Positions 547 through 48,222 of a stretch of 64,000 nt of DNA are shown piece after piece. A program made the position numbers and the translations under genes. Within the stretch, counting starts at the first letter, position 1. Each line of letters starts with the position of its first letter. The DNA is from Chiloscyllium plagiosum (Eukaryota). Under the pieces are notes generated by a model. It was not told the origin of the DNA and ran no database searches. It saw only the letters and a list, made by a program, of their open reading frames with translations. The stretch spans positions 39,663,164 through 39,727,163 of the forward strand of contig NC_057722.1 of the NCBI RefSeq assembly GCF_004010195.1. Direction: 5' to 3'.

Positions 547-1908
547 AGAATAGAACAACAGTGCAGCACCTGTCCTTCAGCCCTCGATGTTGCACCGACC
601 TGTGGAACCAATCTGAAGCCCATCTAACCTACACTATTCCATTCTCATCCTCATTCCTATCCAATGACCATTTAAATGCCCTTAAACTTGGCAAGTCTAT
701 TACTGTTGCAAGCAGGGCGTTCCATGCAACCTACTACTCTGAGTAAAGAAACTCCCTCTGATATCTGTCCTATATCGATCACCCCTCAATTTAAAGCCAT
801 GTCCCCTCGTGCTAGCCATCACCACCTGAGGAAAAAAGGCTCTCACTGTCCACACTATCTAACCCTCTGGTTATCTAATGTCTCAATTAAGTCACCTCTC
901 AACCTTCTCTCTCACGAAAACAACCTCAATTCCCTCAGCCTTTCCTCATAAGACCTTCCCTCCATACCAGGCAACATGCTAGTAAATCTCTTCTGAACCC
1001 TTTCCAAAGCTTCCACAGCCTCCCTAAAATGCGGTGACCAGAATTGTATGCAATACTCCAAGTGCAGCCGCACCAGAGTTTTGTACAGCTGCAGCTTGAC
1101 CTCGTGGTTCTGAAACTCAATCCCTCTACCAATAAAAGCTGCATGCCTTCTTAACAAGGAGAAAGTGAGGACTGCAGATGCTGGAGATCAGAGCTGAAAA
1201 TGTGTTGCTGGAAAAGCGCAGCAGGTCAGGCAGCATCCAAGGAGCAGGAGAATCGACGTTTCGGGCATGAGCCTTCTTAACAACTCTATCAACCTGGGTG
1301 GCAACTTTCAGAGGTTGATGTACATGGACACCGAGTTCTCTCTGCTCATCTACATTACCAAGAATCTTACCATTAACCCAGTACTCTTTATTCCTGTTGC
1401 TCCTTCTGAAGTAAATCACCTCACATATTTCCTCATTAAACTCCATGTGCCACCTCGCAGCCCAGCTCTGCAACTTATCTATGTCCTTCTGTAGTCTGCA
1501 ACATCCTCCTGCGCTATCCATAACTCCACCGACCTGAGCTTCACCTGCAAATTTACTAACCCACCCTTCTACGCTCTCATCCAGGTCATTTATAAAAATG
1601 ACAAACAGATCCTTGCGGTACTCCACTAATAACTGAATTCCAGGATGAACATTTCCCATCAACCATGACCCTCTGTTTTCTTTCAATTACTGATCCAAAC
1701 CACCATATCACCCTCAGTCCCACGATTCTGTATTTTGTGCAACAGCGTACCGTGGGGGATGTTACTGAAATCCATATACACCACATCAACCACTTTACCC
1801 TCATCCACCTGTTTGGTCACCTTCTCAAAGAACTCAATAAAGTTTGTGAAGTACAACCTACCCATCACAAAACCATGTTGACTATCCCTAATCAATATAT
1901 TCCTCTTT
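547..1908 (-). mobile_element. CR1/HER1-like LINE, RT to 3' end, degenerate; interrupted by a Penelope-derived short insert at 1158-1270
   Basis: ORF fragments SQHGF..NFIEFFEKVTKQVDEGKVVDVVYMDFS, FVIFINDLDE..SKFA, LYKTLVRLHLEYCIQFWSP. Confidence 0.9.
1158..1270 (-). mobile_element. Short Penelope-terminal (pLTR) insert with truncated hammerhead motif
   Basis: Matches the terminus of Penelope fragments at 4552-4944 and 43120-43245; flanked by 13-bp duplication gccttcttaacaa (1145-1157, 1271-1283). Confidence 0.8.
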
Positions 1909-1944
1909 AGTGGGCCGGAGGCCCTCTCTCTCCCTGTTACTCAC

Positions 1945-2003
1945 GGGCCGATCCTGAAGCTCCTGCTCAGCTGCAGACACCAGCTCACGACCCGCGCCGC
2001 CAT
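1945..2003 (-). CDS. MRPL47: Probable MRPL47 (39S ribosomal protein L47) coding exon 1; remainder lies left of the window
   Basis: Minus strand AAG ATG GCG GCG... MAARVVSWCLQLSRSFRIG(P), presequence-like (Arg/Ser/Leu-rich, no acidic residues), followed by donor GTGAGT (1944-1939); identity rests on the known head-to-head arrangement with NDUFB5, not on peptide recognition. Confidence 0.7.
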
Positions 2004-2525
2004 CTTACTCCCAGAATGCACTACGTCACCAGTCTCCCGGCAACCGGCCGCCAGAGCATCTCATTGGCCAATATTCACCCAATGTGCCCCCATTAGAGAA
2101 AAAGGTTACATTAAAAATAATCAGTACTGTATACTATCCGAAGTAAATAATCTTTTTTAAGGTCGTTTATGCAACCAGGCCAGCACGCTCCCAATGTCAG
2201 TAAAACAATAATACACTGTGCAGATGTTTCAATCTAAAAATAGAAACAGAAAATATGCTATTTGCATCAACATTCATTTTACCCTTTCACAAAGCGCTAG
2301 AGCATATTTACAGAAAAATGATAGATAATCTAATTTGAAAATTTGTTGGCTGTTTTTTGCACAATGCGTTGTAGTGAGAAATGATTCTGAATCCTTGCCA
2401 TGGTCAAATATGGCGCCTGTTGGTTTACACTTCATGGAATTGCTCAGGCGACCTGGAGAGTATCAAACATGGCGCCTGCCGATTTCCGTCCCTGTGACCA
2501 CTGGAGTCACCGAGGAGTATCAAAG
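2004..2525. promoter_or_regulatory. Bidirectional MRPL47/NDUFB5 promoter
   Basis: Divergent ATGs ~520 bp apart; ZNF143/SBS-like CTCCCAGAATGCAC 2008-2021, RFX-like GTCTCCCGGCAAC 2032-2044, ATTGGCCAAT 2063-2072, CCAAT 2079-2083, YY1-like AAGATGGCG over both start codons; locally CpG-rich. Confidence 0.75.
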
Positions 2526-2643
2526 ATGGCGGTGTTAAGTGTGCTGAGAGCTGCGGCTGCTCTTGTGGCGCGGCGACCTTCTCACAAACTGCAGCGTCTG
2601 GCTGGAAATTCCTTACTCAAGGTTTTTCCTGCAGCTTCTAAAG
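2526..2643 (+). CDS. NDUFB5: NDUFB5 exon 1 (mitochondrial presequence)
   Basis: MAVLSVLRAAAALVARRPSHKLQRLAGNSLLKVFPAASK, donor gtatgg, phase 1 compatible with exon 2. Confidence 0.9.
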
Positions 2644-3487
2644 GTATGGCTGGCCCTAACCGACTCTTAGTTCAGTTCGGCCGTCTGCGTCAGGGAATCG
2701 ATTGACCTTGTAAAGTGCAGCAGGTCACAACAAAAAAAAACTTGCATTTACTTGGCGAACAAATGGTTCATTAAGGCCAATTTTGATGCTCAGCCCATTA
2801 GTGGGTACTGCTTTAGTGCAAGTGGCCAGAAGCTGTATTCAGAGTTTGTTTTAATCAGTGTCTCTAAGGTGGAGAAGGAGCGATGTACGAAAATGGAGGT
2901 AAGATGGACCTCTCAGATTTCAGGACATGAGCATTTAAAAGTACAGCCATGAATGTAGAATGAATAACTCAAGAGGCTAGAGTTAGAGGAATACAGATAT
3001 CTCAGGAGGTTCTGGGATTGGAAGAGACTCCAGATGATGTCATTGGATGGATTTTAAAATTGAGATGTAATTGGAAGTTGTCTTAAGTGTATGAATGTAA
3101 TTGGTGATGGTGAATAAGATCTGGAGTGAGTTGAGACAGAAGCAGAAGAGTTTTTACTTGACTGAAGTTCACAGGGTATGTGTGAGGCTGACCAGAAAAG
3201 TAACAGTCAATACATTCAGATGTTGTTGGAGAAACTTAGTAGGTCTGGCAACATCTGTGGAGAGACAAATGGAATTAATGTTTCAACTTTAGTGACCCTT
3301 CTTCAGAACTGAACAGTCAACACTTGTAACTTGTGAGGGTTCCAACAGATTGGAAAATAACTGATGTGATGCCCCTGTTGAAAAGGAGGGAGGATGTATA
3401 TGCTAGTTAGCCTAATACCTGTCATTAGAAAAATGCTAGAGTCTATTATTAAAGAAGAAATAGCAGTAATTGAGAATAGCTGAACAC

Positions 3488-3581
3488 AGCTGAAAATGTG
3501 TTGCTGGAAAAGCGCAGCAGGTCAGGCAGCATCCAAGGAGCAGGAGAATTGACATTTCAGGCATGAGCCCTTCTTCAGGAA
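3488..3581 (-). mobile_element. Short Penelope pLTR copy with hammerhead motif
   Basis: Revcomp ttcCTGAAGAagggctcatgcctGAAAtgtcaatt. Confidence 0.8.
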
Positions 3582-4220
3582 AGCCCTGCTTGATTGAACA
3601 CAATCAAGCAACAAATGCAATATTATCTCATGAATGATCAGAATAAAATGAGCTGACAATCAAAGCTCTGGAAAAAAAATTTTGAGCAAAACTCAGGGAA
3701 AGTTTAAACTTAAGTGTTTGCATGGTGACAGCAGTTAAGTCCTGTGGAGCAAAATAAGAAAGAGTATTTAATAGATCATGGACATGTGCAAAGGGAGCAG
3801 CTCACTTTTATTAAGAATGTATATTTCTAAAGATTTTTGCATGTAAATATGTTTAATCATTTGTTCAGATGAGTTATGATATACCTTGGGCGCAGCTGGA
3901 ACTTGAACCTAGAACTCCATTCTTTATTTTTAGAAAAATCAATTTGTTCAGGTTTGTTATCATACAGTATGGAGTGGGTTGGATTTGAGCTCAGGTCTTC
4001 TAGCTCAGAGGTAGGACATTACCAGTGTGCCAAAAGGACCCTTTATTTCTCATATATGCAGAGGCACTATATGGCATTTTGTGGTAAGGGAGAACTTTGG
4101 TTTTTGCATGACCGTTTAAATAAATTCTGTTTTTGCTAAGAGTCTGTGTTTTAAATACTTTTCCTTTCTGTCCATTCTAACTTTTTTTTGTAAAAGCTGT
4201 CTTGCTATTTCTTAATTTAA

Positions 4221-4496
4221 GGCGGCACAGTGGCTCAGTAGTCAGCACTCCTGCTTCACAGCGCCAGAGACCAGGGTTTGATTCCACCCTCAGGTGGATG
4301 TCTGTGTGGAGTTTGCACACTCTTCCTGTGTCTGCGTGGGATTCCTTTGGGTGTTCATGGTGTCCAAGGATGTGTCAGTTAGGTGGATTAGCCATGGGGA
4401 ATGCAGTGTTATTGGACGGGATATTCTTCAGATGGTCAGTGTGGAGTCTGGGCCCAATGTCTTGCTGCCACACTGTAAAGAATCTATGTTCTATGA
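4221..4496 (+). mobile_element. HE1-like tRNA-derived SINE
   Basis: A box tggctcagtagtc, B box gtttgattcc, V-domain-like core tgtgtggagtttgcacactcttcc, CR1-like tail ending tctatg. Confidence 0.85.
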
Positions 4497-4551
4497 ACCT
4501 ACGATATTTGGAACTGCATGATTCTCTCCACGGTCAATCCCTGAGTTCTTT

Positions 4552-4944
4552 GAGGAGAAAGTGAGGACTGCAGATGCTGAAGATCAGAGCTGAAAATGTG
4601 TTGCTGGAAAAGCGCAGCAGGTCAGGAGGCATCCAGGTAACAGGAGAATCGACGTTTCAGGCATAAGCCCTTCTTCAGGAATGAGGAAAGTTTGTCCAGC
4701 AGGCTAAGATAAAAGGTAGGGAGGAGGGACTTGGGGGAGGGGCGTCGGAAATGTGATAGGTGGAGAGAGGTCAAGGTGAGGGTGATAGGTCAGACTGGGG
4801 TGGGGGCGGAGAGGTCAGGAAGAAGATTGCAGGTTAGGAAGGCGGTGCTGAATTCGATGGATTTGACTGAGATAAGGTGGGGGGAGGGGAAATGAGGAAA
4901 CTGGTGAAATCCGAGTTCATCCCTTGTGGTTGGAGGGTTCCTAG
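4552..4944 (-). mobile_element. Penelope-like element 3' end (end of GIY-YIG ORF plus pLTR with hammerhead)
   Basis: Minus strand LGTLQPQGMNSDFTSFLISPPPTL, homologous to 42850-43245. Confidence 0.85.
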
Positions 4945-5069
4945 GTTCTGCCCATATGTATGTCTCCAGAATGCCTCTAACACCAGTTGAAAGTCAACTT
5001 TGTTTTAACATGTGTAGCAGACATTGTGGAAGTGTACTTTTCTGAGCTGTTAAGAATTAATCCACAAGT

Positions 5070-5272
5070 TATAGAGTCATAGAGATGTACAGCATGGAAA
5101 CAGACCCTTCGGTCCAACTCGTCCATGCTGACTAGATATCCCAAACTAATCTAGTCCCATTTGCCAGCACTTGGCCCATGTCCCTCTAAACCCTTTCTAT
5201 TCATATATCCATCCAGATGTCTTTTAAATGATGCAATTATACCAGCCTCCTCCACATCCTCTGGCAGCTCAT
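5070..5272 (-). mobile_element. CR1/HER1 3' tail fragment
   Basis: atagagtcatagagatgtacagcatggaaacagacccttcgg, revcomp of the tail at 36600-36677. Confidence 0.8.
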
Positions 5273-6070
5273 TTTAGGGAACCTGATTGGAAAATTGGGA
5301 AGAGGCTTATTGTGCAGGATTTTTATCCACATTTATATTTAACCCTTTTATTTTGGTGTTATTTGCAATGCACCTTTTTTTTATGGGTCTTGTTTTTAAA
5401 TTAGGCTAATACATGTTATAGCAGTCATGGCACATTAATCTGTCTCCCACTGTTTCATAATCTTATCTGAATAAAATAGATGTCTACATTAGTACACTAT
5501 TAAATTGAAAATCTGTGTAATTATGATAAATCTGTTATGGAATTATGATAAATCTGTCATTGAGTGTAGGTAGTGCCCTTAACACAGCCTTGTTTTGACT
5601 CATTGGAGTATAAACTGGAATCATAATAGAAAATCTGCCCCTATTTTCTTTTATAACCTCTTCAAAGTTGTTTTAATTGAAAGTCCATAAAATAGGTAGT
5701 AGTCAAGTCAAAAAGCTTCATGCTAGATGTGTAGTTTTGTAATCATGGTTTCTATTGTTTTAAACAAAAATACATTATTTTACATTCAGCTTGACTCCCA
5801 AATCATACAATAGTCCAGATTTGGACGACAATTTTGATATCACACAGTTACATGGGAAAATATAATTTGGATTGGAAAATGAATCTGCTAAAACCTGAAT
5901 AGCAATATTGTTTATTGAAGTTAAGATATATTTAAAGTTCTGTTTTCTTAAGCATTTAATGTTAAAGTATACAATTTATATCTGCAGCACCAACTTAATT
6001 ATATAGTGTTTCTCACATAATGAAATGTCCCAAGATGCTTAACAGGAGCATTGTAATTCTTGAGATACTG

Positions 6071-6165
6071 AGACGGATGGCCGAGTGGTCTAAGGCACCA
6101 GACTCAAGGAGTGTTAGTCTTTGCTCTGTATCTGGGCTTGTGAATTCTGGTCCCTTTTGTGGGCG
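6071..6165 (+). pseudogene. Truncated intron-containing tRNA-Leu(CAA) pseudogene
   Basis: GGATGGCCGAGTGGTCTAAGGCaCCAGACT-CAA-G (anticodon 6105-6107), 36-nt intron 6109-6144, then TTCTGGTC; degenerate acceptor stem; T-arm replaced by a SINE. Confidence 0.75.
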
Positions 6166-6485
6166 GCACGGTGGCACAGGTGGGTGGCACGGTGGCACAA
6201 GTGGGCAGCACAGTGGCACAGTGGTTAGCACTGCTGCCTCACAGCGCCTGAGACCCGGGTTCAATTCCCGCCTCAGGCGACTGACTGTGTGGAGTTTGCA
6301 CGTTCTCCCCGTGTCTGCATGGGTTTCCTCCGGGTGCTCCGGTTTCCTCCCACAGTCCAAAAAGATGTGCAGGGTCAGGTGAATTGGCCATGCTAAATTG
6401 CCCCTAGTGTTAGGTAAGGGGTAAATATAGGGGTATGGGTGGGTTTCGCTTCGGCGGGTCGGTGTGGACTTGTTGGGCCGAAGGG
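6160..6485 (+). mobile_element. HE1-like SINE with triplicated 5' head; runs into a gap
   Basis: Three ~20-nt gtgggcggcacggtggcaca-like units, then tggttagcactgctgcctcacagcgcc and B box gttcaattcc. Confidence 0.9.
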
Positions 6486-6815
6486 NNNNNNNNNNNNNNN
6501 NNNNNNNNNNNNNNNNNNNNNNNNNNNNNNNNNNNNNNNNNNNNNNNNNNNNNNNNNNNNNNNNNNNNNNNNNNNNNNNNNNNNNNNNNNNNNNNNNNNN
6601 NNNNNNNNNNNNNNNNNNNNNNNNNNNNNNNNNNNNNNNNNNNNNNNNNNNNNNNNNNNNNNNNNNNNNNNNNNNNNNNNNNNNNNNNNNNNNNNNNNNN
6701 NNNNNNNNNNNNNNNNNNNNNNNNNNNNNNNNNNNNNNNNNNNNNNNNNNNNNNNNNNNNNNNNNNNNNNNNNNNNNNNNNNNNNNNNNNNNNNNNNNNN
6801 NNNNNNNNNNNNNNN

Positions 6816-7408
6816 TCGATGTGCTTCTTGATTGAATCTGTGGATGAGTGCCATGCCTGTAGGAATTCCCTGGCTGTTCTCTGTTTGGCTTGTCCTATAA
6901 TAGTAGTGTTGTCCCAGTCGAACTCATGTTGCTTGTCATCTGCGTGTGTGGCTACTAAGGATAGCTGGTCGAGTCGTTTCGTGGCTAGTTGGTGTTCATG
7001 GATGCGGATCGTTAACTGTCTTCCTGTTTGTCCTAATCCGCATCCATGAACACCAACTAGCCAAGAAACGACACGACCAGCTATCCTTAGTAGCCACACA
7101 TGCAGATGACAAGCAACATGAATTCGACTGGGACAACACTACTATTTTGGACAAGCCAAACAGAGAACAGCCAGGGAATTCCTAGAGGCATGGCACTCAT
7201 CCACAGATTCAATCAAGAAGCACATCGATCTAGACCCAATATACCGGCCACTTCAGCGGACAGCTGGAACTGACAACTGGAAGCGACAGATTCAAATCAC
7301 TACAAATGCCGGAGGAAAGATCACAGAAGCACTTCACAGGAGGCTCCCAAGCACTGGGGATGTCACCTAGACAGGGGATGAAACGTCTGCAACACAAATT
7401 CCCAGCTT
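6816..7408. mobile_element. Penelope-like GIY-YIG/pLTR end in inverted arrangement (6816-7035 minus, 7037-7408 plus)
   Basis: GQTGRQLTIRIHEHQLATKR..FDWDNTTIIGQAKQRTAREFL on both strands; hammerhead remnant at 7351-7390. Confidence 0.85.
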
Positions 7409-8483
7409 AGTTTAATAGCTACTCTCTAGAGTTAGATGTATTTATTTGTCTAACTTTTCCAGAACTGTTCAGTCTCCAATTTTTATGGCGACTTTCCAAG
7501 GGTGCCAGGCAAAGTGGATTTGCTCAAAGGAATATTTAAATTGCTGGGCAATTCCTTCTAAGTCTGCTATGATGGAGGTTCTTCAGGGTCCCCTGCACAT
7601 CTCATATCAATGCTGGCATAATGACTGTCTCGCCAGCAAATTACTACCATAAGAGGTCTGATCAGAAGCTTGGGTCAAAATTAGGATTTTAAAGGAGGAT
7701 AATAAGATAGAGAGATGTTGATAAGTATTCCAGAGTGTGGGGCATGGCCACTAGTGGTGGAGTAATTAAAGTTGGGCGTGTGTACAAAAGGCCAAATTTC
7801 AGAAGTAAATATATTTCAGAGGGTGAAAGGGCTGGATGAGGTTACAGATTTGGGAAGGGTGAATTCATATAGGAATTTGAAAGTTACTTAAAAACTTTAA
7901 AATCAAGATGTCCCTTATTTGGGAGCCAATGTAGCGAGCACAAGAATGATAGTGTATCAGGACTTGCTGCAAGTTAGCGAGCAGGCTGCCAAGGTTTGGA
8001 TGATTTAAAGTTATGGAATATGGGAAACAAACCAGGATGCATGGAATGCTTGAGCATTGAAAAAGTGATGGCAGGGATTTTTGAGGCTTAAGTAGCAGAA
8101 GACCTGAGTTTGACATGTAATGTAATGATGCTAGCTAACAGCTGGTCTTTGTGGTGGCATTAAAATGTGGTTAGAAGCTCATCTCAGGGTCAGATGTGAC
8201 ACCAAGGTTACAAACTGGCTTAATCTTGGGCTTATTGCCAAGGAGAGGAATGGAGTCAGTAGTTGAGGAATTAAGTTTGGAGAGGAATCCAATAACAGTG
8301 ACTTCAGTTTTCCCAATATTTAATTTTGAACAAATTCCTGCTCATCCAGTATTGCATGTCAGAAGAGCATTCTGATAATTTATCAATAAAGGAGTCATGA
8401 AGAAAGGTAGTGGTGTTGAACCTAATGTACATTTATTTATTTTCTATTAACTGACAAGTTTTTGTGGTTTTGTTTTATTCTAG

Positions 8484-8569
8484 TTGCAGTTCGTCATGGT
8501 AGTCATGGAAAACAGATGTTTGTTGTCAAGTCCAGTCAATATTATGATACTCGCTTTCTGCGTCTTTTG
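8484..8569 (+). CDS. NDUFB5: NDUFB5 exon 2
   Basis: ttctag | (V)[28 protein letters not shown] | gtatgt. Confidence 0.95.
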
Positions 8570-8954
8570 GTATGTATCAAAGTTGCATCCAAAGTCAGGT
8601 GAATGAATCCACAAACATAGAAAAGATATTCTGCCTGAGATTGAATGGGATAAATTATGTAATTCAAATATAAAGCCATTGGTTAGTAATCAGCATTGAT
8701 AAATAATAACTTCTTAATTCTGGTTACTTATTCGATTGGAATGTGTGGACATAGTGTATACCCAATTATATTGTGCAAAGAAGAACATATGTATTGAGAA
8801 AATTTGTTGTCTTTGATGTAAAGCTTTAGAAATATTTAATGAAAAAGCATTATTGACTTTTCTACCCCAAAGAAAAAATAGTTTATTTTTAGTGCTATAT
8901 AAACCTGAAACCCAATATATATAATTATTCATTTGTTCTCTACTCACTACATCT

Positions 8955-10610
8955 GTGTGTCACCTGTGATGGCATATTATCTGCAAGTGCCTCGAAGTCT
9001 GAGTTGTAGTTGGATACTGCTAGTCATATACAGTCAGGCGCAATATTTAGGCTTGGTTCTCATAATTTTGGAGAGCACTGTCTCTCAGAGCTATGTGGAG
9101 TAAAGGTAAGCCTTCATTTTAAAAGCACAGGATGATAAGAATGGGTATTTTTCTCTTTTTATCAAGTCCGCAAAAATCACTGTCCCTTGAATTAACTTTC
9201 AGCTCAACATCATTTGCATAGTAATTATCTTCATATCAATTCCACTGCTGTATAAATGGAAACACCTCATGGAATTTGGTAGTCAAGACACCAATATCTA
9301 CTTAAGGGGATGGAATTGAGACAAACTTGATGATTTGTTGCATCACAAATTTGTTGCGAATTCCTGAAATCACCTCTTGAATTCCTCTGCCAACTTCTTT
9401 AGGTATGCACAAATATTTTATGGATAAACCATTTTTCTTTATCTTTTTTATTTATTTTTCTAGAATTTTAAGATTCAAGATGTTGCTACGTTTTGTTCTT
9501 TAAGTGGGAAGACCATAGACCCAGTTTCAATTTGAATACACATACAGCACTTAACTGTAGGGAAAGGACAGACACTTTGCATGTAACAGTTCAGCTTGTT
9601 CAGTTTTGACATTGTCTATAAGGAGCCCGAAGTCAAGCAACCACCATTTCATCAGTGAGTTCACGGCACACTTTGTTCCTTGATTTCAGGAAAGTGACCG
9701 TTTCGGGCATCAGATCAAACAATCTTTGCGGGACTTTCCCTTGACTTCCATCTCACATTAGCATGATCAGTTTGTCGTGGGGCTCTGCTCGAATTGAGTT
9801 TACAAACTTAATTTCTATTACATGAGAGAAATCCATAACTTTGTTTGTTAATGCTTGCTTTATTTCAGTGGTAATTAACAAAAAAAGCAAAATCAAGATA
9901 ATATCTGCAAATGCAACAAAACCTGCATTTGAACCAAGCATGGCTAGTGCAAGATCAGTTGTGATGGAAACCAGCGTCTTGATTGGAATTTTTTTTCTCA
10001 TATATATCTTTTGAAATTTTTGCAGATATCCTCCTTTTTACTTCTCTCTGAGGCAAAAATGTGGGACGTTCCTCTTTAATTGTTATGTCCTTAAAATGTT
10101 CGTGAACACAAGTGTAATCAGTTGGGCTGTGTCAGTCATATTTATTGGCTTCGTCTAAATGCAGTGAAAAGCATACATAGTCCTTCAGGTCGTGTTGCAG
10201 TTGTTGAAATTTGCCGTTGCTAGCATGGAAGCATTAAGTGACGTGCTTTGGATTTTTGTTACTATTCTTTGTTTTAAATGTCTTTGAATAAAGTCATTGG
10301 CCACAGTCATTGCTTCTTTAATTACTTTGCCATCTGCAAATTATTATATTATGTTTTGCCAGAGAATGATAAATGTGAAATATGATTCAGTGGAGATCTT
10401 CCCTTTTGCTGCTCGAATAGGGAAATAACTGTTGAGAATTCAAAATGGCCTTCAGCTCATCAACTTCAACTTCATTTGTCTGAAGTATGCTGTTCAAATG
10501 AAAACCATCCTTGAATTTACTTTGCATCATTGTCATTCCACATACCTTTTCACCTATTGATTTACTTCAGTGGCATTTAAGACAAATGGTCTTAATTTTT
10601 ACATGTATAC
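8955..10610 (-). mobile_element. Fossil hAT (SPIN/Buster/GTF2IRD2-like) transposase
   Basis: Frameshifted minus-strand motifs in the expected order: LAKH..FADGKVIKEAM; FSLHLDE..MTDTAQL; LVSITTDLALAMLG (TDGAPAM); FVNSIRA; NVRW..RLFDLMPETVTFLKS; KYPFL..YST; SNYNSDFEALADNMPSQVTH. Confidence 0.8.
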
Positions 10611-10673
10611 AATTTTAAACACACATTGACAGTTGCATTGATAAATTTGAGGAATTTTCAATTCTTTCTGCAG

Positions 10674-10740
10674 ACATTCTACACTTTATTAACTGGAATA
10701 CCAGTGGCTGTTTTCGTCACTTTTGTGAATATTTTTATTG
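10674..10740 (+). CDS. NDUFB5: NDUFB5 exon 3 (transmembrane helix)
   Basis: tgcag | TFYTLLTGIPVAVFVTFVNIFI(G) | gtaagt. Confidence 0.95.
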
Positions 10741-11635
10741 GTAAGTATTTTAGTGGTAGTTACAAATGATGCTAAGATTATTTTTAAATGAATAGTGTAA
10801 TTCAATTGACATTGAAAATAAAATGAGCTAAAATTACTGCATTATGATTTAAAACCTGTCTAATTCATTAATGTCCTTCAGAGAAAGATATATACTGTCT
10901 TTGTCCATCTGGTGTAACCCCAGACCCAAAACAACATAATTGACACTTAATTGCCCTCTGAAATAACCAGAAATCTAATCAGCTGTGTCAAATTTCTCTG
11001 AGAATGACTATTAAGAATAAAACTAAATGTATCAGCTGACATTGACCAAGGAAACTGCTACACCCAACCCAGCCAATCCTGCAAAGTGGTCCTCGCTGAT
11101 AGCTGGGATCTTATGCTAGAATTGGGAGAGCTGTCCAATAGACTCAGGCAATATCTATATACAACTGGGAAATATATCTTAGTTTCTTAACTAGTGTTGA
11201 GTAAAACTCCCTGCGTCACAGCCTGAGGATGTTCCTAAATCTTAGAAGGTGTAATTCAAGGTGTTCACTAATTTTGAGGAGAATTAGGCATAGACCATAA
11301 ATGCTGGCCTTGACCGCAATGCATGCAAAACATGAACAAGTAAGGAGACATGTTCTGTAAATTTTAACTCTGCATTCAAGTGATCACTTTGTGATTACAT
11401 TTACTTTGTGAGGTAAATTCAACTTACCCCAATAAATCTGGCTCTTAAAGCATTATATTCAATTCAAGTATAAATGTTATCAAACTAGGAATTTAACACA
11501 CAATGATGACCAGTGCAGGGCATGCAATGTAAATAAATAATCATATATTTTGCACAAAATGGAAACAGATCAATTATTCTTGGAAGAAAATAAACTGCTT
11601 TTCTAAAAATATATCTCTGGGTTTACATTTCTCAG

Positions 11636-11697
11636 GTGAGGCAGAACTTGCAGAGATTCCTGAAGATTATGTGCCAGAACATTGGGAATACCACAAG
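11636..11697 (+). CDS. NDUFB5: NDUFB5 exon 4
   Basis: ctcag | (G)[20 protein letters not shown] | gtacag. Confidence 0.97.
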
Positions 11698-11894
11698 GTA
11701 CAGTAAGCCTCTTTGTAATCATATTAACTAATGCACTGGGTGTCAACTATAATTTGCAATATTTCCTCAGCACCATTTAGATACAGATTAATTCATTGAG
11801 AGTTGCAATTAGGATTCCTTTGAAGATAAACTCTTTGTTAACTTGTGTATAGAGGACTAGCAGCTATTTGCACCTGAAATAAAATAACATCTGG

Positions 11895-16646: not shown

Positions 16647-16757
16647 AATGATTTCTTCCTTCATGCTTTGTAAACTCTGGGGAAGGTGAAAGCTGTAAGT
16701 GCTAGGCACCTTTTTGTTAGTAATCTCATGTCCAGTTATATTATTTTCTACTTGCAG

Positions 16758-33079: not shown

Positions 33080-34820
33080 TCAGAGTACTAGATTTTCCAT
33101 CCATTCAGGTATGATTGAAAAATCCAACCCGTACAGACAATCAATTTCACTATGATACAGATACCCACCTCGATTTGATTCTGTTCTTCTCCAAACTGTC
33201 TTCCTTCTCACTTCTACTATTTGCTTCTAATATTTCTAGTGTTAGCAAGCTCCACATTCTCACTATTCTTTGGATAAAAACCATTCTTCTGAATTCCCCA
33301 TTGGATATTTGGTAACAATCTAATATTGATTGTCCCAGGTTATGTTCTTCCTTGCAAGAAGAAATACTTTCTGTTTGGTCAATCAGTTAAAACCTTTCAG
33401 AATTGTAAATAGATGTCTGTAAATTCACTCTTCAGGCTTCTTTTTATTAAAGAAAAGAAACTCAGCCTGTCAGTCCCTTCCTAATGTTATGTACACATAT
33501 TTCTGGTAGCATTCTTATAAAGCTTCTTTACCCTCTCCAAATCTTTTTCTTATAACATGGGAACCAGAAAAACACAAAGCACTCTCAAGTGCCATCTAAA
33601 TAACGTTCTATACAGACTTAAACACACAGAAATTGTTGGAGAAACTCAGCAGGTCTGGTAGCATCACTGGAGAGCTCTCTCCACAGATGTTTCACACCTG
33701 TTAAATTTCTCAGGCACTTTCTCATTTGTTTCAGATTTCCAGCATATGCAGTATTTTACTTTTATTCTAGGTAGGTTTAGCCTAATTTCTCTATGATTCG
33801 ATTCTATCCCTCTTGAAATAATGCCCGGTATATGGCTAGTTTATTTATAATGGCCTTGCGAATCTATGATGCAGCTTTCTATGATTGATATATTTATACT
33901 CCATGATCTCTTTGTTTCTCTACCCCACTGAGGCCTACACTTTCCATGTAAAAAATGACCTCTCAATTCTTTCAATCAAAATCTATTACCTCACACCTAT
34001 CTGTGTTGATTTGCCAATTATTTGCCCATTCTTCACATTTATTTATGGCTTCTGAAATTTATAGCAGTTTTCCTCAGTATTGACAGACCTCCAATTTGGT
34101 GTTATCCTTAAATTTGGAAATTGAATTAGTTTATTCCAAGATATAAATCATTAAGTACATTGTGAATAGCAGTCATCCCGAAACTATCCTAATGGAACGT
34201 CACTTCCCACTTTCTGCTACTCTTCTTTTTGCTTTGCAACCATCAAGTAATCCCTTCAGTGACTTGAACTCTGACTTAACATTCTTTGAGCTTATTCATT
34301 AGTACCACATTATGGAATGTTGTTTGGGAATACAGAGAAATTGCATTACCCCATTGTTACCTCCTCATAAACTTCAAAACATTTGGTCAAGAAAGATTTC
34401 CCATTTTGAAATCCATACTGACAATTCATAATTATTTATTTCTTTATTTATAGATCTTCTAATATTCTCTCATTTGCTAGGGATTCTATATTTTTCCTGC
34501 CACAGATATTAAGACTAATCCATAATTCTCTGGACATTTTCTGACCTCTTCTTAAATGTAGGAATTATATCATTTATCCTCCAGTATTCTGGCACTATAC
34601 ATTTTTCCAAAAAATTATTAAATGTATCTAGTAATGCCTTTGTTATCTCCAGATTCTTTTGTAATTTGTGGCTGCATTCCATCTGATCGAAGGGCATTAT
34701 CCTCTTTTGGTTTGATTAGTTTGTTCACCATTTTGAAATTTTAAATGCAATTATTCAATCTCTCACCTCATTGTTCAGTGACATGTCTACATATTCTATC
34801 TCCATGTTAAATACTGAAAT
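33080..34820 (-). mobile_element. Old CR1 LINE with a nested inverted pLTR remnant (~33620-33770)
   Basis: VPEYWRINDIIPTFKK and other RT remnants. Confidence 0.6.
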
Positions 34821-34823
34821 ACT

Positions 34824-40242: not shown

Positions 40243-41313
40243 ATACGTAGTAAAGCTGTTTTGCAATCTAGATCTCATGACAATTGTTATATATTGAAAG
40301 AAAAAAATATAAACTTTAAAATATAACCAGTACAGATAACTGATTAGATTTTATGTGGAAATTACTGAAAGCAGAAATACTATAGAAGTCCATGAAAACA
40401 ATTAAACTGAAGGTGGAGACTCAACAATCATTCCTCTCCTGGTATTTAATAGATCTCAGCATGCCAGTGAATACAAGTCTGAAGTGTTTGCAATCTTCTT
40501 CAATGAAAAGTGCTGAGTGAATGACCCATCTAAGCTTCATCCTGAGGATCCCTGCATCACATTTGCCAGTCTTCAACAAAATCTATGTACTCCATGTGAT
40601 GTTAAGAATGGCTTCTTAGACAAAGTAAAGGATATGAACCTTAACAACATTCCCGCTACACCATTGATGACGTATGCTTCATAGCTAACCACACTCCTAG
40701 CTGAATTGTTCTAGTAGAGCTAAGACACTGGCATCTAATGAACAATGTGCAAACTATCCAGGTATGTCCTGTCCACAAAAGCAGAACAAATCCATTCTGA
40801 TCAGATACCAGCCCATCAATCTCCTATTAAACATCAACAAAGTCAATTCTAGGAGGAAGAGGCTGTGGAATTTCAAAATCAGATGTCATATTGGAGTATG
40901 TGTGAGAATCAAAAATGACATTCCTTTTGCTTTTCCAACCTAAAGGCTTATTTGCCTTTTTGCTAAAGCATCCAATGAATGATGCAAAGAAACAACTCAA
41001 GGTGTCTCCCATTTCCTGAGTGTTTGTCCATATTCCAACTAACACGTCTTAAAGGTATTACTTTCTTCAAACACAGATGTACTTAGAGAAATAATTTATA
41101 TTCCTTGCAATCTAAAAATTGCTTCTCTATTTTACAGATTAACCAGTTGTTAAGTCTTCGTCTTTTCCTTTTTTTCCTGTTTATCACTGAAAATGAAGAT
41201 TTCGATTTGAGGAATGCAAAAAAAATCTTGATTATTTAGAGTCATGGAGTGATTCATCATGGAAACAGATCTTTTGGTGCAAATAGTCCACTCCGACAAT
41301 GTTCCCAATCTAA

Positions 41314-43245
41314 TTTACGTCGGCTATGTAGAACAGGCCAGCTTCTGGAGTTACACCGGCACCGCTCCGCACATTTCTCTCCGCTACATTGATGACTGCA
41401 TCGGTGCCACCTTGTGCTCCCACTTCATCAACTTCACCAACACATTCCACCCTAACCTTAAATTCACCCGGGCCATCTCTGACTGGAATGGGACTATTTG
41501 GCGCCGCCCTTTTGGCGCTGATCATTTGGCCCCACCATTTTGGCTCTAAACTGATTTGGCGCTGAGCTGTTTTAGTGCCAATACATATAGATAACCATCA
41601 TGTAAAAATTTTGGTTTGTCTCTCTTGCTTAGAATGTTTTCAGCCATTTCTGGTATGGGCTCTACAAGAAAATAGAAAGAAAATTGTATTACAGCTTTCC
41701 AGTGTGAAGACAGAAGGGCTTAAGTATCATCAAGGCAGTAGATGACTATTAACAATTGTTAAATGAGAAAATGATTACAAAACGAGATTTGAATCTAACA
41801 GCGGGTTATTACAGCTTTGACTATCAATTCTTGCTAGTTGAGAAAATTACATCGGGTCGTTAGTCATCCTCTCTTCTTTAACCAAACAAGACTTTTTTAA
41901 ATTCTGAATTGGCACTAAAACAACTCAGCACCAAAGTAATGAGCGCCAAAACAGTTTAGAGCCAAAACGGCGGGGCCAAATGATCGGTGCCAAAAGGGCA
42001 GCACCAAAACATACCCGACCCATCTCTGACACCTCCCTCTCCTTTCTGGACCACTCCATCTCCATCAACGATGACCGACTCAACACTGACATTTTTTACA
42101 AACATACCGACTCCCACAGCTACCTGGATTACACCTCCTCCCACCTCAACCTCCTGCAAAAATGTTAACCCATTTTCGCAATTCCTCCGCCTCCACCGCA
42201 TTTGCTCCCAATATGACCAGTTCCACCACAGAACACACCAGACAGCTGCTTTCTTTAAGCACTGCAATTTCCCCTCCAACGCAACTCATCCACGGCCTGC
42301 ACTTCCCCCCTCGAACCCCACCCCTCTAACCACAACAAGAACAGAACCCACCTGGTCCTCACTTTCCACCCTACCAACCTCCGCATAAATCACATTATTC
42401 GCTGATATGTCTGCCACCTCCAAACAGACCCCATCACCAGGGATATATTTCCGCAAAGACGGTTCCCTCCGTGACTATCTGGTCAGGTCCACATCCCCAA
42501 CAACTCACCCTCCCCTCCTTGAACCTTCCCCTGCCACTGCAGGAATTGCAAAACTGGTGCCCACACCTCCTCCCTCACCTCCATCTAAGGACCCAAAGAA
42601 GCCTTCGACATCCCTCAAAGTTTCACCTGCACTTCCCACCAATGTGATTTATTGTATCCGTAACTCTCGATGTGGTCTCCTCTACATTGGGGAGACCTGA
42701 CGCCTTCTCGCAGAGCGTTTTAGGGAACATCTCCACGACACTCTGAACATTTTGACTCCCCGTCCCACTCTGCTGAGGACATGCAGGTCCTGGGCCTCCT
42801 CCATTGCCACTCCCTCATCACCCAACGCCTGGAGGAAGAATGCCTCATCTTTTGCCTCGGGACCCTTCAACCCCAGGGCATCAATGTGGATTTCACCAGT
42901 TTCCTCATTTCCCCTCCCCCCACCTTACCCCAGTTCCAACCTTCCAGCTCAGCACCACCCTCATGACCTGTCTTATCTGTCAATCTTCCTTCCCACCTAT
43001 CTGCTCCACCCTCCTCTCTCACCTATCACCTTCACACCCACCTCCATCCACCTATTGCACTCCCAGCTACCTTCTCCCCAGCCCCACCACCATTTATCTC
43101 TCCAACCTTGAGGCTCCCAGCCTCATTCCTGATGAAGGTCTTTTGTCTGAAATGCGATTTTTCCTGCTCCTCGCATGCTGCCTGACCTGCTGTGCTTTTA
43201 CAGCACCACTCTAATCTTGACTCTAATCTCCAGCATCCACTTCTG
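41314..43245 (+). mobile_element. Penelope-like element (second family; RT thumb + GIY-YIG + pLTR) inserted into a CR1 tail (41237-43510)
   Basis: LRYIDDCIG, FHPNLKFT, FLDHSI..TDIFYKHTDSHSYLDYTSSH, NVIYCIR..CGLLYIGET; 9-bp TSD ccaatctaa (41305-41313, 43246-43254). Confidence 0.9.
41484..42019. mobile_element. Non-autonomous DNA transposon (MULE/MuDR-like MITE)
   Basis: ~90-110 bp internally repetitive TIRs made of ttggcgc-like units; 11-bp TSD ccatctctgac (41473-41483, 42020-42030). Confidence 0.8.
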
Positions 43246-44076: not shown

Positions 44077-44165
44077 AGTCCTGAAGAAAGGCTACACGCG
44101 AAACGTCAACTTCTGCAACTCCTGATGCTGCATGGCTTGCTGTGTTCTTCCAGCCTCCTGCCCAT
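44077..44165 (+). mobile_element. pLTR copy with hammerhead motif inside a CR1 3' fragment (43640-44240)
   Basis: agtcCTGAAGAaaggctacacgcGAAACGTCaact. Confidence 0.7.
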
Positions 44166-44475: not shown

Positions 44476-44557
44476 TCTAGATTAGACACAGCACAGCAGA
44501 TCAGGCAGCATCCGAGGGGCAGGAAAATCGACATTTCTGGCAAAAGCCCTTCATGAG
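44476..44557 (-). mobile_element. Short pLTR insert upstream of USP13
   Basis: 11-bp TSD gattaactgag (44465-44475, 44558-44568); degenerate hammerhead. Confidence 0.75.
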
Positions 44558-44842
44558 GATTAACTGAGGACCAGCACAAGGAGATTTGTTGAAACACTGA
44601 TATTTTGTATTTATTGCCAGCTCTCCTTCTGTACAAAGTCTCTGCAACCTCTCCCCCAGTGTCCGGTTTTTTTAAAACAGGAGCAGAAGCGTCAGCAGGT
44701 CCGATGGCTGGAGGGAGGGTGGGCTGCGATTTTGCACTGGTTTAAAAATAGTGTGCCGTCCTGCAGTCTCTGCTCGCCCAGTTCCAGCTCACTTCACAAT
44801 CAATGTCTGCCCTGAACAGCATTCTGGGTTAGGAATGTCAAC

Positions 44843-44953
44843 ATGGCTGCAGACATCGGAGAACTGCTGGTGCCGTACATGCCAACCATCCGAGTCCCTA
44901 GATCAGGGGACAGGGTTTACAAGAGCGAATGCGCCTTCTCCTTTGACTCCCCA
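44843..44953 (+). CDS. USP13: USP13 (ubiquitin carboxyl-terminal hydrolase 13) coding exon 1
   Basis: [37 protein letters not shown] | gtaagt; strong Kozak aacATGg; position next to NDUFB5 favours USP13 over USP5. Confidence 0.95.
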
Positions 44954-45960
44954 GTAAGTAGGCAGGCCGCCCTTTGGGAAGGGGTTGCGCACATGGAGGC
45001 TTTCTCGCAGGAAGTTTTCCAGTTTTCCATTGACACGTGAATGACTGCACAAACTAACGATGCTCAGCTGGATTTAGGAACTTGCTGATAACGGACAGGC
45101 TGTGGCCAGTGTTGGACTTTGTTAAACAAACCAGTGGAGGATGAAAGACCGCAGCAGCTCAGCAACCTATTGGGGCCAGAAAGCAAAAGGGTATGGGGCT
45201 TGACATGTCAGTGGGCGTGTGATCCTGAACATTTAAACCGAAATAAGGAGGAAAGTTTTATAAAGCAAAGCGTCGGAAGGCAGCTAGTATTATAATTTGT
45301 CAGCTACCATGTAAACGAGTAACGTTCATTTTATATAGACCTAAAGAGCAAATTAAGAGTAAGGGTCTTCTTAAATAAGTTTTTAAAAGTTACGGAAAGG
45401 AAGAGAATTAAAGTGAAAGGCGAAGGAAGATACAGTTTTTATAACTGTTTTAAAATTCTTGGTAAATTCTAAAAGATGGCAAATAGAAATGTGGCTTTTG
45501 GTTGTTTGCAAAATTAAATAAAAGTGTAAAAGTATAGTAAAAGGTGACTCAGCTGTTTGGCGTTCATCAACAGTGCCCGAGACAAGTTATTTATATACAG
45601 ATAGTTTGGGGGTCGGGTGTCGAATTTCTTTTTCCTGCCCTGAAGGTTGTGTTCCGACTAGTTTTAAAATATTAATAAATTAATGACGTATTTAACAATT
45701 ATTGATTTTGTTGTAGCAGTAATTTCGAATATATTTTTAGTTAATCTTTATGTTCCTTTTAGTTGAGATGTAATGTGATCACAGTGAAAGTATAGAACGT
45801 GTGTTGTACTCCATCAAGTGGTGAACGAGTAGATGGAAAGTCTTCCCATCCCAGTATTAAATCTAACCCAGAACATGCCATGATTTGTTATAGTACTGTT
45901 TGAATAGTATTTTTTTTGCTGTATCCTCCAGACGGTGTAGTAAAATTTCTTCACTCCCTC

Positions 45961-46095
45961 AGTTCTGGGGAAGGGTCACTGGACCTGAAATGTTAACTCT
46001 GATTTCTCTCTACAGGTGCTGCCAGACCTACTGAGCTTCTTCAGCAATTTCTGTTTTTGTTTCTGATTTACAGCCTCCACCATTCTGTTGGCTTT
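45961..46095 (+). mobile_element. Older pLTR-like short element with degenerate hammerhead
   Basis: agttCTGGGGAagggtcactggacctGAAAtgttaact; related copies at ~3215-3310 (-), 18870-18995 and 19400-19530. Confidence 0.6.
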
Positions 46096-47146
46096 CCTTT
46101 TAACTGGATAGTGAGAATATGAAACTTGCTACCACAAGGAGGACTTTAAAGAAGTAGCGCACATGTATTAAAGGGAAGCTAGATAATTGAGGAAATGTGT
46201 ATATGTTTGGATTACTTAAAGTAGGAGGAAACTCATACATCAACAACAATAACTTGCATAAATGTAACCCTTTCAACAAAGTAAAATATCTTAAAGCACA
46301 ACATAGAAGGGATATAAAACAAATTTGATGCAGAGGTACATAAGGAGATCCTGGAATAAATAACCAAACGCTTGGTCATGGAATTCAATTTTACAGAGCT
46401 TGTGAAAAAAGGGAGAAAGGCAAAAATTTTGTGGAGGGAATTCTCAAACTCAGGCCTAGATGACCAAAGATCTGGTTGTCGATTGTAGGGCAATTAGGAG
46501 AAAGTGAGGACGAGAGATGCTGGCGAGTCAGAGTCAAAAAGTGTGCTGTGGGAATCAAAAGCCAGAATTTGTGATGTGTAGAGATCTTGAAAGACCATGG
46601 ATTAGAAAATTAGTAGTTTTTGTGTAAATCATAATTCCAAGTAAATTAAAGATTGAACATGTAATTATGTTTGTGCTAAAAAAAACTAAGGGCAAATTGT
46701 ATGAATTTAACGTATATTCCTGTGTCTTTACAACAGGAGCTCACAATTTCTAAACTTTTATTACATTTTTGTAAAGTTCTACACAGATAAAGTACATTTA
46801 AGAAATTTTTGCCCAAAATGAATGTAACCTATGTCTATTAGTGACTAATTTACACAATTTGTATTATAATATGAATGTAGGACATTATATAGAAAAGCCA
46901 TTGGAGCAAAATGTGGCATCAAAAAGTAACGTTTGGGAGATAGCTGATTACTGCATGACCCTATGACACAAAGTATGGAAACAGACTGTTCAGTCCAACC
47001 AGTCCATGCCGAATATAATTCCAAACTAAACTAGTTGCACCTGGCGCAGCTCCTGGCCTATATCCCACTAAACATTCCCTATTCACGTACCTATCCAAAT
47101 GTCTTTTAAACATTATAATTGTACCCACATTCATCACTTCCTCAGA

Positions 47147-47447
47147 CATGGTGGCTCAGTGGTTAGCCCTGCTCCCTCAGCTCCAGGGACCCAGATTGGA
47201 TTCCAGCCTTCGGCGACTGTGTGGAGTTTGCATATTCTCCCTGTGTCTGCGTGGGTTTCCTCTGGGTACTCCGGTTTCCTCCTACAGTCCAAAGATATGC
47301 AGGTCAGGTGAATTGGCCTTGCTAAATTGCCCATAGTGTTAGTATGTTAGTCAGAGGGAAATGGGTCTGGCTGGGTTACTCTTCGGAGGGTCGGTGTGGA
47401 CCTGTTGGGCCAAATGGCCTGTTTCCTCACTGTGGAGAATCTAATCT
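47147..47447 (+). mobile_element. HE1-like SINE
   Basis: Head, core and aatctaatct tail. Confidence 0.88.
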
Positions 47448-47756
47448 TAAAAAAAAAAGTTTATTCCATATGCAAACCACCCTCTGTGCAAAAAAAATTG
47501 CTTCGTCTTTTTTATATCTTTCTCCTCTCATCTTAAAAATGTGCCCCTTAATCTTGAAATTCCCCAACGTAGCAACCATTACCTCTATCTATACTCTCAT
47601 TATTTTATTTTTAGTTTATTTTATGACAGGTCGCCTCTTGACCTCCTACGCTGCAGTGAGAAAAGTCTCAGCCTATTCAACCTTTGTTATAATTCAAACC
47701 TTCCGTAACTGTCAACATCCTTGTAAATCTCTTCTGAACCCTCTCCAACTTAATGA

Positions 47757-48222
47757 TGTTAAAAATCACACAACAGCAGGTTAGAGTCAAACAGGTTTAT
47801 TTGGAAGTAGAAGCTTTTGGAGCATTGTTCCTTTGTCAGGTAGCTAGTGGGGCAGGATCATAGGATGCAGAATTTATAGTTAAAGGTTCAAAGTTTCCAA
47901 ATAAAACTTCAAGTTATTTTCAGGAATGTGACTTGAAAGAAGTTCTGGGATTTACATATTAATGAATCAATACCTGCAACCCCATTCTAAGTGATTAAAG
48001 ACTTTACAGCAATCTTGGTTTGTTCAATACATCGCATCAGTTGAATGACACTTTGATCTTTTACTCTAAATTCTGTGTCCTATGATCCTGTACCACTAGC
48101 TATCTGATGAAGGAGCAATGCTCCGAAAGCTAGTACTTCCAAATAAACCTGTTGGACTATAACCTGATGTTGTGTGATTTTTAACTTTGTCCACTCCAGT
48201 CCAACACTGGCACCACCATACC
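47757..48222. mobile_element. Inverted pLTR pair of a further Penelope-like family with hammerhead
   Basis: 47760-47880 is the inverted copy of 48062-48185; tatCTGATGAaGGAGCaatGCTCC-GAA-AGCT-A^gta at 48101-48135. Confidence 0.8.

Follow-up and report, generated by a model that had tools for sequence, protein, structure and literature searches.

Minimal hammerhead-like motifs recur throughout the window, i.e. the whole 64-kb stretch of DNA analysed here, and raise the question of whether they are genuine ribozyme motifs of Penelope-like elements and whether the copies in the introns of NDUFB5 and USP13 could cut host transcripts. What hammerheads do in vivo in Penelope elements that carry an endonuclease continues to be described as unclear (PMC8557442). 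A copy-rich genome could offer a cheap test of this role through intronic strand bias and 5' ends at stem I, for which one window is too small.

Detection of hammerhead motifs

The motif CUGANGA-N-stem II-GAA-ANNU-H-stem I' was seen at all seven places of the 64-kb window cited in the initial annotation. A strict descriptor with a perfect core gave 4 matches (mean 0.04, maximum 1 in the shuffled window), while tolerating at most one core mismatch gave 8 (mean 0.56, maximum 3); the chance control consisted of 100 first-order shuffles, done in 1-kb blocks. The type I core CUGANGA...GAAA...UH is present, with 4 sites passing the strict descriptor including both stems. The minimal type-I hammerhead motifs in the window are genuine and exceed chance.

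Two of the eight matches with at most one core mismatch resemble chance. Descriptor matches at 48430-48465(-), 47887-47926(-) and 474-519(-) fall outside every motif family and were taken as chance.

With the family searches the total rises to 21 sites, nine in group A, five each in B and C and two in D, a count that replaces the approximately 12 copies, some degenerate, estimated initially. The catalytic core is complete in 9 of the 21 sites and missing or damaged in 12, and only two sites, 24865 and 48101 on the plus strand, keep core, palindrome and both stems. These are also the only ones among the seven originally cited copies for which an intact motif could be upheld: 7351 and 45961 read CUGGGGA (A6 to G), and 16572 is short of three nucleotides of the core box. 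An Rfam search of the window returned no hammerhead family among 10 matches with E up to 5, and its microRNA matches at 6972, 13266 and 24636 were rejected as lying under the gathering score and overlapping inverted repeats. A covariance model built from 12 window copies regained those 12 and 6 other known sites (13317, 44522, 16567, 19397, 1247 and 47804, at E <1 or near), with no convincing new family in the window; its match at 54232-54315 (E 0.026) was discarded because it is without a GAAA box.

Groups A and B and their Penelope-like relics

Groups A and B are located at the 3' ends of relics encoding reverse transcriptase (RT) and GIY-YIG domains, Neptune-like and Poseidon-like, respectively, and in the pseudo-LTR position of an RT plus GIY-YIG element. 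The following features belong to group A:

24865..24900, plus strand: intact minimal hammerhead with core, ACGT, G10.1-C11.1 and stems I and II of 4 bp each; lies between NDUFB5 and USP13
41313..43230, plus strand: Neptune-like Penelope relic with RT pieces and GIY-YIG at 42644-42736 (E 1.4e-05)
~43125-43160, plus strand: hammerhead ending the Neptune-like relic, U16.1 lost
4573..4947, minus strand: copy with a Neptune-like ORF end upstream; NDUFB5 intron 1, antisense
4647-4682, minus strand: near-intact hammerhead with core, ACGT, G10.1-U11.1 and one stem I mismatch
3485..3585, minus strand: short copy with an intact core, ATGT and a broken stem I; NDUFB5 intron 1, antisense
13204..13413, no single strand: head-to-head pair that folds into a single long hairpin
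13281-13316, minus strand: copy of this pair, core intact, ATGT
13321-13356, plus strand: copy of this pair, C3U and G12A
1158..1279, minus strand: copy truncated within the CUGA box
44077..44154, plus strand: divergent copy that retains core and ACGT, with breaks in both stems
44488..44561, minus strand: copy with G5C and ATGT

The stems of 24865 are predicted with probabilities of about 0.9 alone and 0.14-0.62 within a 365-nt context. The relic upstream of the group A hammerhead resembles shark proteins, one of them with a CX4CxxC linker; the CX2-5CxxC linker of the Neptune clade is present in the matching shark protein P0147, and in the window relic it is just degenerate and in a shifted frame. 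Among 289 candidates, no homolog of the 42389-42697 frame was detected at E 0.001. Group B comprises the following features:

28683..30953, plus strand: Poseidon-like Penelope relic with a broken RT plus GIY-YIG-type ORF at ~29136-30808 (RVT_1 E 4e-07); its left end carries a 5'-truncated copy in inverted orientation
30878..30917, plus strand: hammerhead of the 3' pseudo-LTR, core intact, ATGT, G10.1-U11.1; ATG overlaps A9
28719..28758, minus strand: hammerhead in the inverted copy, with an intact core and ATGT; the tail behind it is ~40 nt longer
6816..7410, plus strand: second Poseidon-like subfamily, inverted and direct endonuclease-end fragments
7351-7390, plus strand: hammerhead of this subfamily, A6G; NDUFB5 intron, sense
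16572..16644, plus strand: short copy with a 3-nt deletion in the CUGANGA box, ATGT; NDUFB5 intron, sense
18305..18377, plus strand: heavily decayed copy, ACAT

Over its full extent the group B ORF matches shark and flatworm Penelope proteins, with 77% identity to a Stegostoma protein, and the element is colinear with proteins P0003, P0006 and P0021, of which P0006 and P0021 combine RVT_1 with GIY-YIG; by eye, no zinc-finger linker was seen between RT and GIY-YIG. Reading from the ATG gives 82% over 34 aa to the N-terminus of P0002. Because this ATG overlaps A9, stem II and the GAAAC box double as the start of the element's protein. The two group B 3' end points lie ~40 nt apart. A metagenome protein scan with P0006 yielded 41 pattern matches and no confirmed relatives.

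Groups C and D

45961..46054, plus strand: group C copy, A6G, ATGT; USP13 intron 1, sense
3217..3312, minus strand: group C copy with an intact core, ACAT and a decayed stem II; NDUFB5 intron 1, antisense
19400..19493, plus strand: group C copy, G8A, AAGT
21645..21728, plus strand: group C copy, core deleted, ACAT
33620..33760, no single strand: two group C-like 3' pieces in inverted arrangement, of which the minus one retains GAA-ACAT only
48101..48135, plus strand: group D minimal hammerhead, core and AGCT intact, predicted cut after 48132; USP13 intron 1, sense
47758..47897, minus strand: decayed inverted group D copy, G8A and G12A; a long hairpin with 48058-48185 is predicted

We infer the Penelope origin of groups C and D, as no coding match lies within ~1 kb upstream of any of four group C or two group D copies. 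Groups C and A are homologous (nhmmer cross-matches at E 5e-10 to 1e-4), which reduces the system to three lineages rather than four independent ones. The proposal of four or more Penelope-related families therefore stands directly for A and B and, through homology to A, for C, while D is left with no coding match. Exact DNA patterns of groups A, C and D occurred in no stretch of the viral contigs, and that of group D in none of the metagenome contigs. Across the window, the sequences support the motifs as minimal hammerheads of the type carried in Penelope-like element pseudo-LTRs.

Conservation and decay of core, stems and palindrome

The stem III box is readable in 18 A/B/C sites, where it reads ACGT in 6, ATGT in 7 (including 30878, 28719, 16572 and 45961), ACAT in 4 and AAGT in 1; none of the window's group C copies retains ACGT. 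The palindromic 15.2-16.2 arrangement without a stem III is present, with AGCT in both group D copies, and 11 of the 18 boxes are CpG deamination products of ACGT (ATGT 7, ACAT 4). The view that stem III is solely the palindrome ACGT or AGCT does not hold for these copies. Similarly, the pairing attc/gaat, initially taken as a family stem I, is the variant of a single copy (24865): the majority form among the six A copies without gaps is ATTC/GATT, which has a U-U mismatch. The tat/gta stem at 48101 includes a G-U pair, and its sister copy has a C there. A single unpaired base between 9 and 10.1 occurs in all 12 aligned copies (A in groups A, C and D; U in B). In the same 12 copies the G10.1-C11.1 position is G-C in 2, G-U in 8 and unpaired in 2; the G10.1-U11.1 pair is consistent with CpG decay of C11.1 ahead of G12.

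Across 12 of the 21 sites, related and hand-picked, 68.5% of the stem cells are paired compared to 52.8 +/- 3.1 in shuffles, and the covariation score for these related, hand-picked sites is 0.487 versus 0.262 shuffled, with slid controls at or below 0.259. Stem covariation between groups, as proposed in the initial annotation, is borne out by these values, and two further measures on the 12 sites were no better than shuffles (330/500 and 461/500). The stems covary between groups, and individual copies decay through CpG mutation. Among the six A copies, core differences (2/60) versus tail differences (16/168) lean toward conservation without reaching significance (p = 0.17).

Copies in host introns

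2526..17674, plus strand: host NDUFB5 coding span with exons at about 2526, 8490, 10690, 11630, 16758 and 17555
44845..55400, plus strand: host USP13, exon 1 at 44845-44955, intron 1, and exon 2 at ~55231 (zf-UBP_var E 2e-15)

One NDUFB5 exon matches Pfam NDUF_B5 (E 7e-16); the remaining exons, assigned from short motifs, are presumed. All three sense copies in NDUFB5 introns carry core lesions, and intact cores were counted in 1 of 5 sense versus 4 of 5 antisense intronic copies, a difference that is not significant (p = 0.21). For 48101, stem I has a predicted probability of 0.0 already in isolation, since AGCUAG pairs with the CUAGCU upstream of it, and together with the upstream inverted copy both stems are predicted at 0.0, with a hairpin of -227.7 kcal/mol over 47740-48250. 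As a dimer, the hammerhead fold reaches -11.9 kcal/mol versus -30.8 kcal/mol for the best alternative, in nearest-neighbour energies that ignore core contacts. The window contains no same-strand AGCT partner for 48101, and its pairing with 45961 in a heterodimer was dismissed on inspection, as the middle positions of AUGU and AGCU do not pair. According to these predictions, a long hairpin with its inverted sister copy traps the USP13 copy 48101. The suggestion that the copies in NDUFB5 and USP13 introns cleave is disfavoured by the lesions in the three NDUFB5 sense copies, by A6G in 45961 and by the modelled stem probabilities of 48101.

Origin and fate of the copies

The locus is very probably explained by minimal type-I hammerheads carried in short repeat copies, some joined to broken Penelope-like genes. 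Selection likely kept the motif only in active parent elements, and copies appear to decay neutrally after insertion. Judging from the literature, the parent RNA would be a partial tandem, and reverse transcription would set in downstream of the motif, at a distance of ~70-110 nt, and in most cases end early, leaving hammerhead-bearing end pieces, short and often inverted, all over the genome. The inverted 5'-truncated arrangement, as described for Penelope-like elements (PMC8557442), is seen at 28683-30953, 6816-7410, 13204-13413 and 47758-48185. In the parent RNA a slow cut after H17 may proceed in a dimer formed through the 4-nt palindrome, or be aided by the element's own protein; published activity of minimal hammerheads (min-HHR) is low or protein-dependent (PMC4209133, PMC11167929). 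Single genomic copies, partnerless and mostly lesioned, likely leave host pre-mRNA uncut.

Some observations count against this explanation, namely the strand skew of intact intronic cores (p = 0.21) and A/C 5' starts that cluster near C3 beyond what random truncation explains. The lower divergence of core than tail in A copies (p = 0.17, not significant) counts against neutral decay.

It is very unlikely that an intact sense intronic copy such as 48101 cuts USP13 pre-mRNA with the help of a Penelope protein or a second RNA, with selection breaking or masking such copies. The intact, sense-oriented 48101 in USP13 intron 1 and the strand distribution of intact cores (1/5 versus 4/5) agree with host-RNA cutting, as do an Anolis ribozyme turned on by its protein (PMC11167929) and the exclusion of retrozymes from Xenopus introns reported in a 2026 preprint, but the strand difference is not significant, and the predicted stem probabilities of 48101, alone and within the -227.7 kcal/mol hairpin, as well as its dimer energies (-11.9 vs -30.8 kcal/mol, core contacts ignored), argue against it. 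Furthermore, intron-internal cuts often leave splicing unblocked. The broader proposal that shark Penelope hammerheads are active in trans, the element protein activating intact copies within host pre-mRNAs, is hardly more probable; sense intronic copies would then survive only through mutation or through masking by a sister copy in inverted orientation, as at 48101, and the copies would provide a genome-wide readout of the in vivo action of these ribozymes.

A likelier idea than trans activity, although still a doubtful one, is that the folded motif, and not its cut, sets the 5' end of mini-elements of ~100-130 nt. Groups A, C and part of B could, less probably than not, be non-autonomous mini-elements whose own RNA starts at stem I and is copied in trans by Penelope protein; this start would be a transcription start, a splice acceptor or a fixed point at the folded motif where reverse transcription stops. 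In 9 of 11 A/C copies, at most 8 nt upstream of C3 are common to any other copy (8 of 10 insertion events once the head-to-head pair is counted as one); 4678 and 43129 have upstream element body in common. In Drosophila virilis, the intron 3' end maps to the helix I 5' end (PMC4209133). As the copies retain the whole core, their 5' end is not the cut site. On the other side, the sample is one window in which upstream sequence could vary by subfamily, the copies were collected partly via the motif itself, and three of four examined B copies and both D copies reach well upstream. Such mini-elements would supplement rather than replace neutral decay of Penelope-derived copies. Finally, chance look-alikes or a protein-coding effect in place of a selected RNA fold, already disfavoured, are extremely improbable: the GAAAC box is in-frame coding in group B, Rfam hammerhead models gave no match and the alignment consists of 12 related sequences chosen by hand, but strict matches far exceed shuffles (4 vs 0.04), an identical core, stem pairing and one unpaired base following A9 are common to groups whose stems are unrelated, and CUGANG lies upstream of the ATG in group B.

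Comparison with known systems

Cervera and de la Pena described minimal hammerheads in pseudo-LTRs of metazoan Penelope-like elements in 2014, with Poseidon and Neptune elements from fishes, coelacanth and Xenopus among the reported carriers (PMC4209133). A term search of the supplement gave 0 occurrences of 'shark', 'Callorhinchus', 'Leucoraja' and 'Squalus', and searches of openly available papers for Penelope hammerheads in sharks showed no report of these families. Non-LTR retrozymes, which are non-coding and carry type I hammerheads from Penelope pseudo-LTRs, were found in one chondrichthyan genome (bioRxiv 10.64898/2026.07.22.740005). They form head-to-tail tandem units with a hammerhead each, whereas the window pairs are inverted; no such tandem units with hammerheads were found here, and none of the seven tandem arrays in the window covers a motif.

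The Anolis carolinensis Poseidon element PAc (PMC11167929) resembles group B in a start codon overlapping A9 and stem II and in an optional 30-40 nt downstream tail, comparable to the group B 3' ends ~40 nt apart. In assays the PAc hammerhead cleaves only with its protein, its cleavage is dispensable for insertion in vitro, and no RNA-seq reads were reported to end at the cut site. The ORFs of the window elements, in contrast, are broken. The sites share with the min-HHR of PMC4209133 the type I topology, the lack of a genuine helix III, the palindromic 15.2-16.2 and the single unpaired base between 9 and 10.1, along with several families per genome, compensatory stems, mostly single and truncated copies and opposite-strand pairs close by. 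They differ in the shark-like host and in the shorter stems of groups A and D (stem II 4-5 bp, stem I 3-4 bp). With these sites, a shark-like genome joins the hosts of the class described in 2014, and its relics are dense there, with 21 sites in 64 kb.

Motif inventory and decay of the copies

A strict descriptor of the minimal type-I hammerhead (CUGANGA, a stem II with 4 or more pairs, GAAA-NN-U-H and a stem I with 3 or more) matches the window four times (24865+, 28719-, 30878+ and 48101+) against a mean of 0.04 (maximum 1) in 100 shuffles, and tolerating one core mismatch gives eight matches against a shuffle mean of 0.56 (maximum 3). Rfam models did not detect the motifs in the window. Collecting the families with BLAST, with nhmmer and with a covariance model made from 12 of the copies yielded 21 sites in which part of a hammerhead can be recognised. 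They fall into four repeat groups (A 9, B 5, C 5, D 2), and tail-only pieces occur besides. The initial annotation had described a system of about 12 copies, which holds as a set of dispersed motifs with this higher count, but three of its seven cited examples are broken, 7351 and 45961 by A6G and 16572 by a 3-nt core deletion, lesions of a damaging kind. Every core base is kept in nine of the 21 sites.

Copies with intact core (position of C3, strand)
3306, minus
3578, minus
4678, minus
13312, minus
24869, plus (motif start 24865)
28755, minus
30881, plus (motif start 30878)
44081, plus
48104, plus (motif start 48101)

The palindromic stem III box is retained in four of these nine and both stems as well in two. 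Among 18 A/B/C copies the box reads ACGT in 6, ATGT in 7, ACAT in 4 and AAGT in 1, a count that omits 43129, where U16.1 is lost. ATGT and ACAT are the two CpG deamination products; they are found on both strands, which would be expected in the absence of selection. Position 11.1, likewise followed by G, has become U in 8 of the 12 copies aligned. Six gap-free A copies differ from their majority at 2/60 core non-CpG positions versus 16/168 in the tail (p = 0.17), which leans towards core conservation, although the tail mixes subfamilies.

In nine of the 11 A/C copies (e.g. 24865, 3582, 13316/13321, 45961 and 3310) the 5' ends cluster within 8 nt upstream of C3, with no more than 8 nt there in common with any other copy, and the two element-attached copies have an upstream body common to both. 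Copies 13312 and 13325 match over 101 nt, a match that is the palindrome formed by the two. Because the A/C copies keep the core, their 5' boundary is not the cut site. Three assembly gaps (6486-6815, 23138-23455 and 24965-25147) are present, two of them adjoining repeat copies. At 60319-60658 a unit of 163 nt is duplicated in tandem almost perfectly, which may be an assembly effect.

Carrier elements

Groups A and B are linked to relics with reverse transcriptase (RT) and GIY-YIG sequences, for which the clade names Neptune and Poseidon, respectively, are provisional. The Poseidon-like relic (28683-30953) contains a broken RT and endonuclease ORF (RVT_1, E 4e-07) that is 77% identical to a Stegostoma protein, runs colinear with proteins bearing RVT_1 and GIY-YIG and is flanked on the left by an inverted 5'-truncated copy. 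Across the window, the named retroelement proteins that match best are from Chiloscyllium, Stegostoma and Rhincodon, which makes the host shark-like. A second group B subfamily (6816-7410) has the same layout. At 59457-60112 lies a further Poseidon-like RT fragment, which contains an inversion and is 85-90% similar to the 28683-30953 element, and at 59164-59206 a tail-only piece lacking the hammerhead.

The Neptune-like relic (41313-43230) comprises RT pieces, a GIY-YIG domain (E 1.4e-05) and an A motif at its end, and the same ORF end lies upstream of 4678-. A stretch of about 520 nt that has 67-nt inverted repeats at its borders (90% alike; 41497-41585, 41925-42008), possibly a small DNA transposon, splits the Neptune-like relic. 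SINE copies with a tRNA head (4222, 6205, 15981, 32691, 34824, 47150) and many LINE RT fragments, which we take to be HE1 and CR1-like, respectively, are abundant. A whale-shark protein that matches the Neptune-like relic includes a zinc-finger linker, as described for Neptune elements in PMC8557442. No coding match was found within about 1 kb upstream of groups C and D, nor were outside loci found with exact DNA patterns for groups A, C and D in viral contigs or with the D pattern and a P0006 protein scan in metagenomes.

Stem covariation and lineages

In the 12 of 21 sites picked as best preserved, 68.5% of stem cells are paired against 52.8 +/- 3.1 in shuffles, a level that none of 500 shuffles reached. 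Covariation scores 0.487, compared with 0.262 after shuffling and at most 0.259 in slid registers, although related sequences can exceed such shuffles anyway. Neither the number of pairs changed on both sides, equalled or exceeded in 330/500 shuffles, nor the number of pair types, in 461/500, shows an excess in this set. The between-group stem pattern is real, as the initial annotation had proposed for at least four families; A and C, however, are homologous over the motif plus the roughly 60 nt that follow it, which leaves three lineages. Compensatory stems between groups already mark the class in a 2014 paper (PMC4209133).

Copies in host introns

Host gene features
2526-17674, plus, NDUFB5 coding span (Pfam NDUF_B5, E 7e-16 for one exon)
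44845-44955, plus, USP13 exon 1, with exon 2 near 55231 (Pfam zf-UBP_var, E 2e-15 for one exon)

The remaining NDUFB5 and USP13 exons are presumed at positions given by short motifs. At about 1945-2005 (minus), a start codon in GC-rich context points away from NDUFB5; assuming vertebrate synteny, it may be MRPL47 exon 1, in which case the truncated copy 1158-1279 would lie in a sense intron of MRPL47.

All three NDUFB5 sense copies are broken (7351, A6G; 13325, C3U and G12A; 16572, deletion), and the sense copies of USP13 intron 1 are 45961 (A6G, ATGT) and the intact 48101. Stem I of 48101 has a predicted probability of 0.0, even in isolation, because upstream CUAGCU pairs with AGCUAG after GAA; together with its inverted sister copy (47758-47897), transcribed earlier, the region is predicted to form a long hairpin in which stem II is also at 0.0. 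Hammerhead dimers reach -11.9 kcal/mol for 48101 versus -30.8 for the best alternative dimer, and -14.3 versus -23.7 kcal/mol for 24865, energies that leave out core contacts and protein. In group D (48096-48134, plus), a second AGCT palindrome lies directly upstream of stem I; in the monomer it pairs with the box of stem III, possibly a built-in off state. Both D copies (48142-48184, plus; the matching part of 47758-47897, minus) have AATAAA about 10 nt past the predicted cut site and then a stretch rich in GU. This may be a poly(A) signal, sense in USP13 intron 1 but within the predicted hairpin. Inverted repeat pairs arising from insertions (13204-13413, 47758-48185, 28683-30953, 6816-7228, 33620-33760 and 24636-24723) would, where intronic, give long double-stranded RNA in pre-mRNA, which may be an editing substrate.

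Selection would maintain the hammerhead fold in the parent elements, whose RNA may cut slowly, aided by a dimer or protein, while genomic copies would leave host RNA unaffected. Reverse transcription of the parent elements may be primed internally, downstream of the motif, and stop early. Against this absence of host effect counts the imbalance of intact cores among intronic copies, 1/5 sense versus 4/5 antisense (p = 0.21).

Comparison with known systems

No paper on these shark families turned up in the literature searched, nor any mention in the 2014 supplement of PMC4209133; a 2026 preprint (bioRxiv 10.64898/2026.07.22.740005) describes hammerhead retrozymes in one chondrichthyan. In the assays of PMC4209133, single minimal hammerheads did not cut and dimers cut at a low level. 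According to PMC11167929, where positions C3 and G8 were assayed experimentally, the Anolis motif cut only with its own protein and no read ends fell at the cut site. In the Anolis Poseidon element, as described there, the ORF begins at stem II, and reverse transcription has two start sites with an optional tail between them. Group B matches this description in both respects: its ATG overlaps A9, the 7351 copy read from this ATG is 82% like the P0002 N-terminus over 34 residues, and copies have one of two end points, which lie about 67 nt and about 105-110 nt past the ATG. Judged by sequence, groups A and B have the characters of the minimal hammerheads set out in PMC4209133, and would be alike in working.
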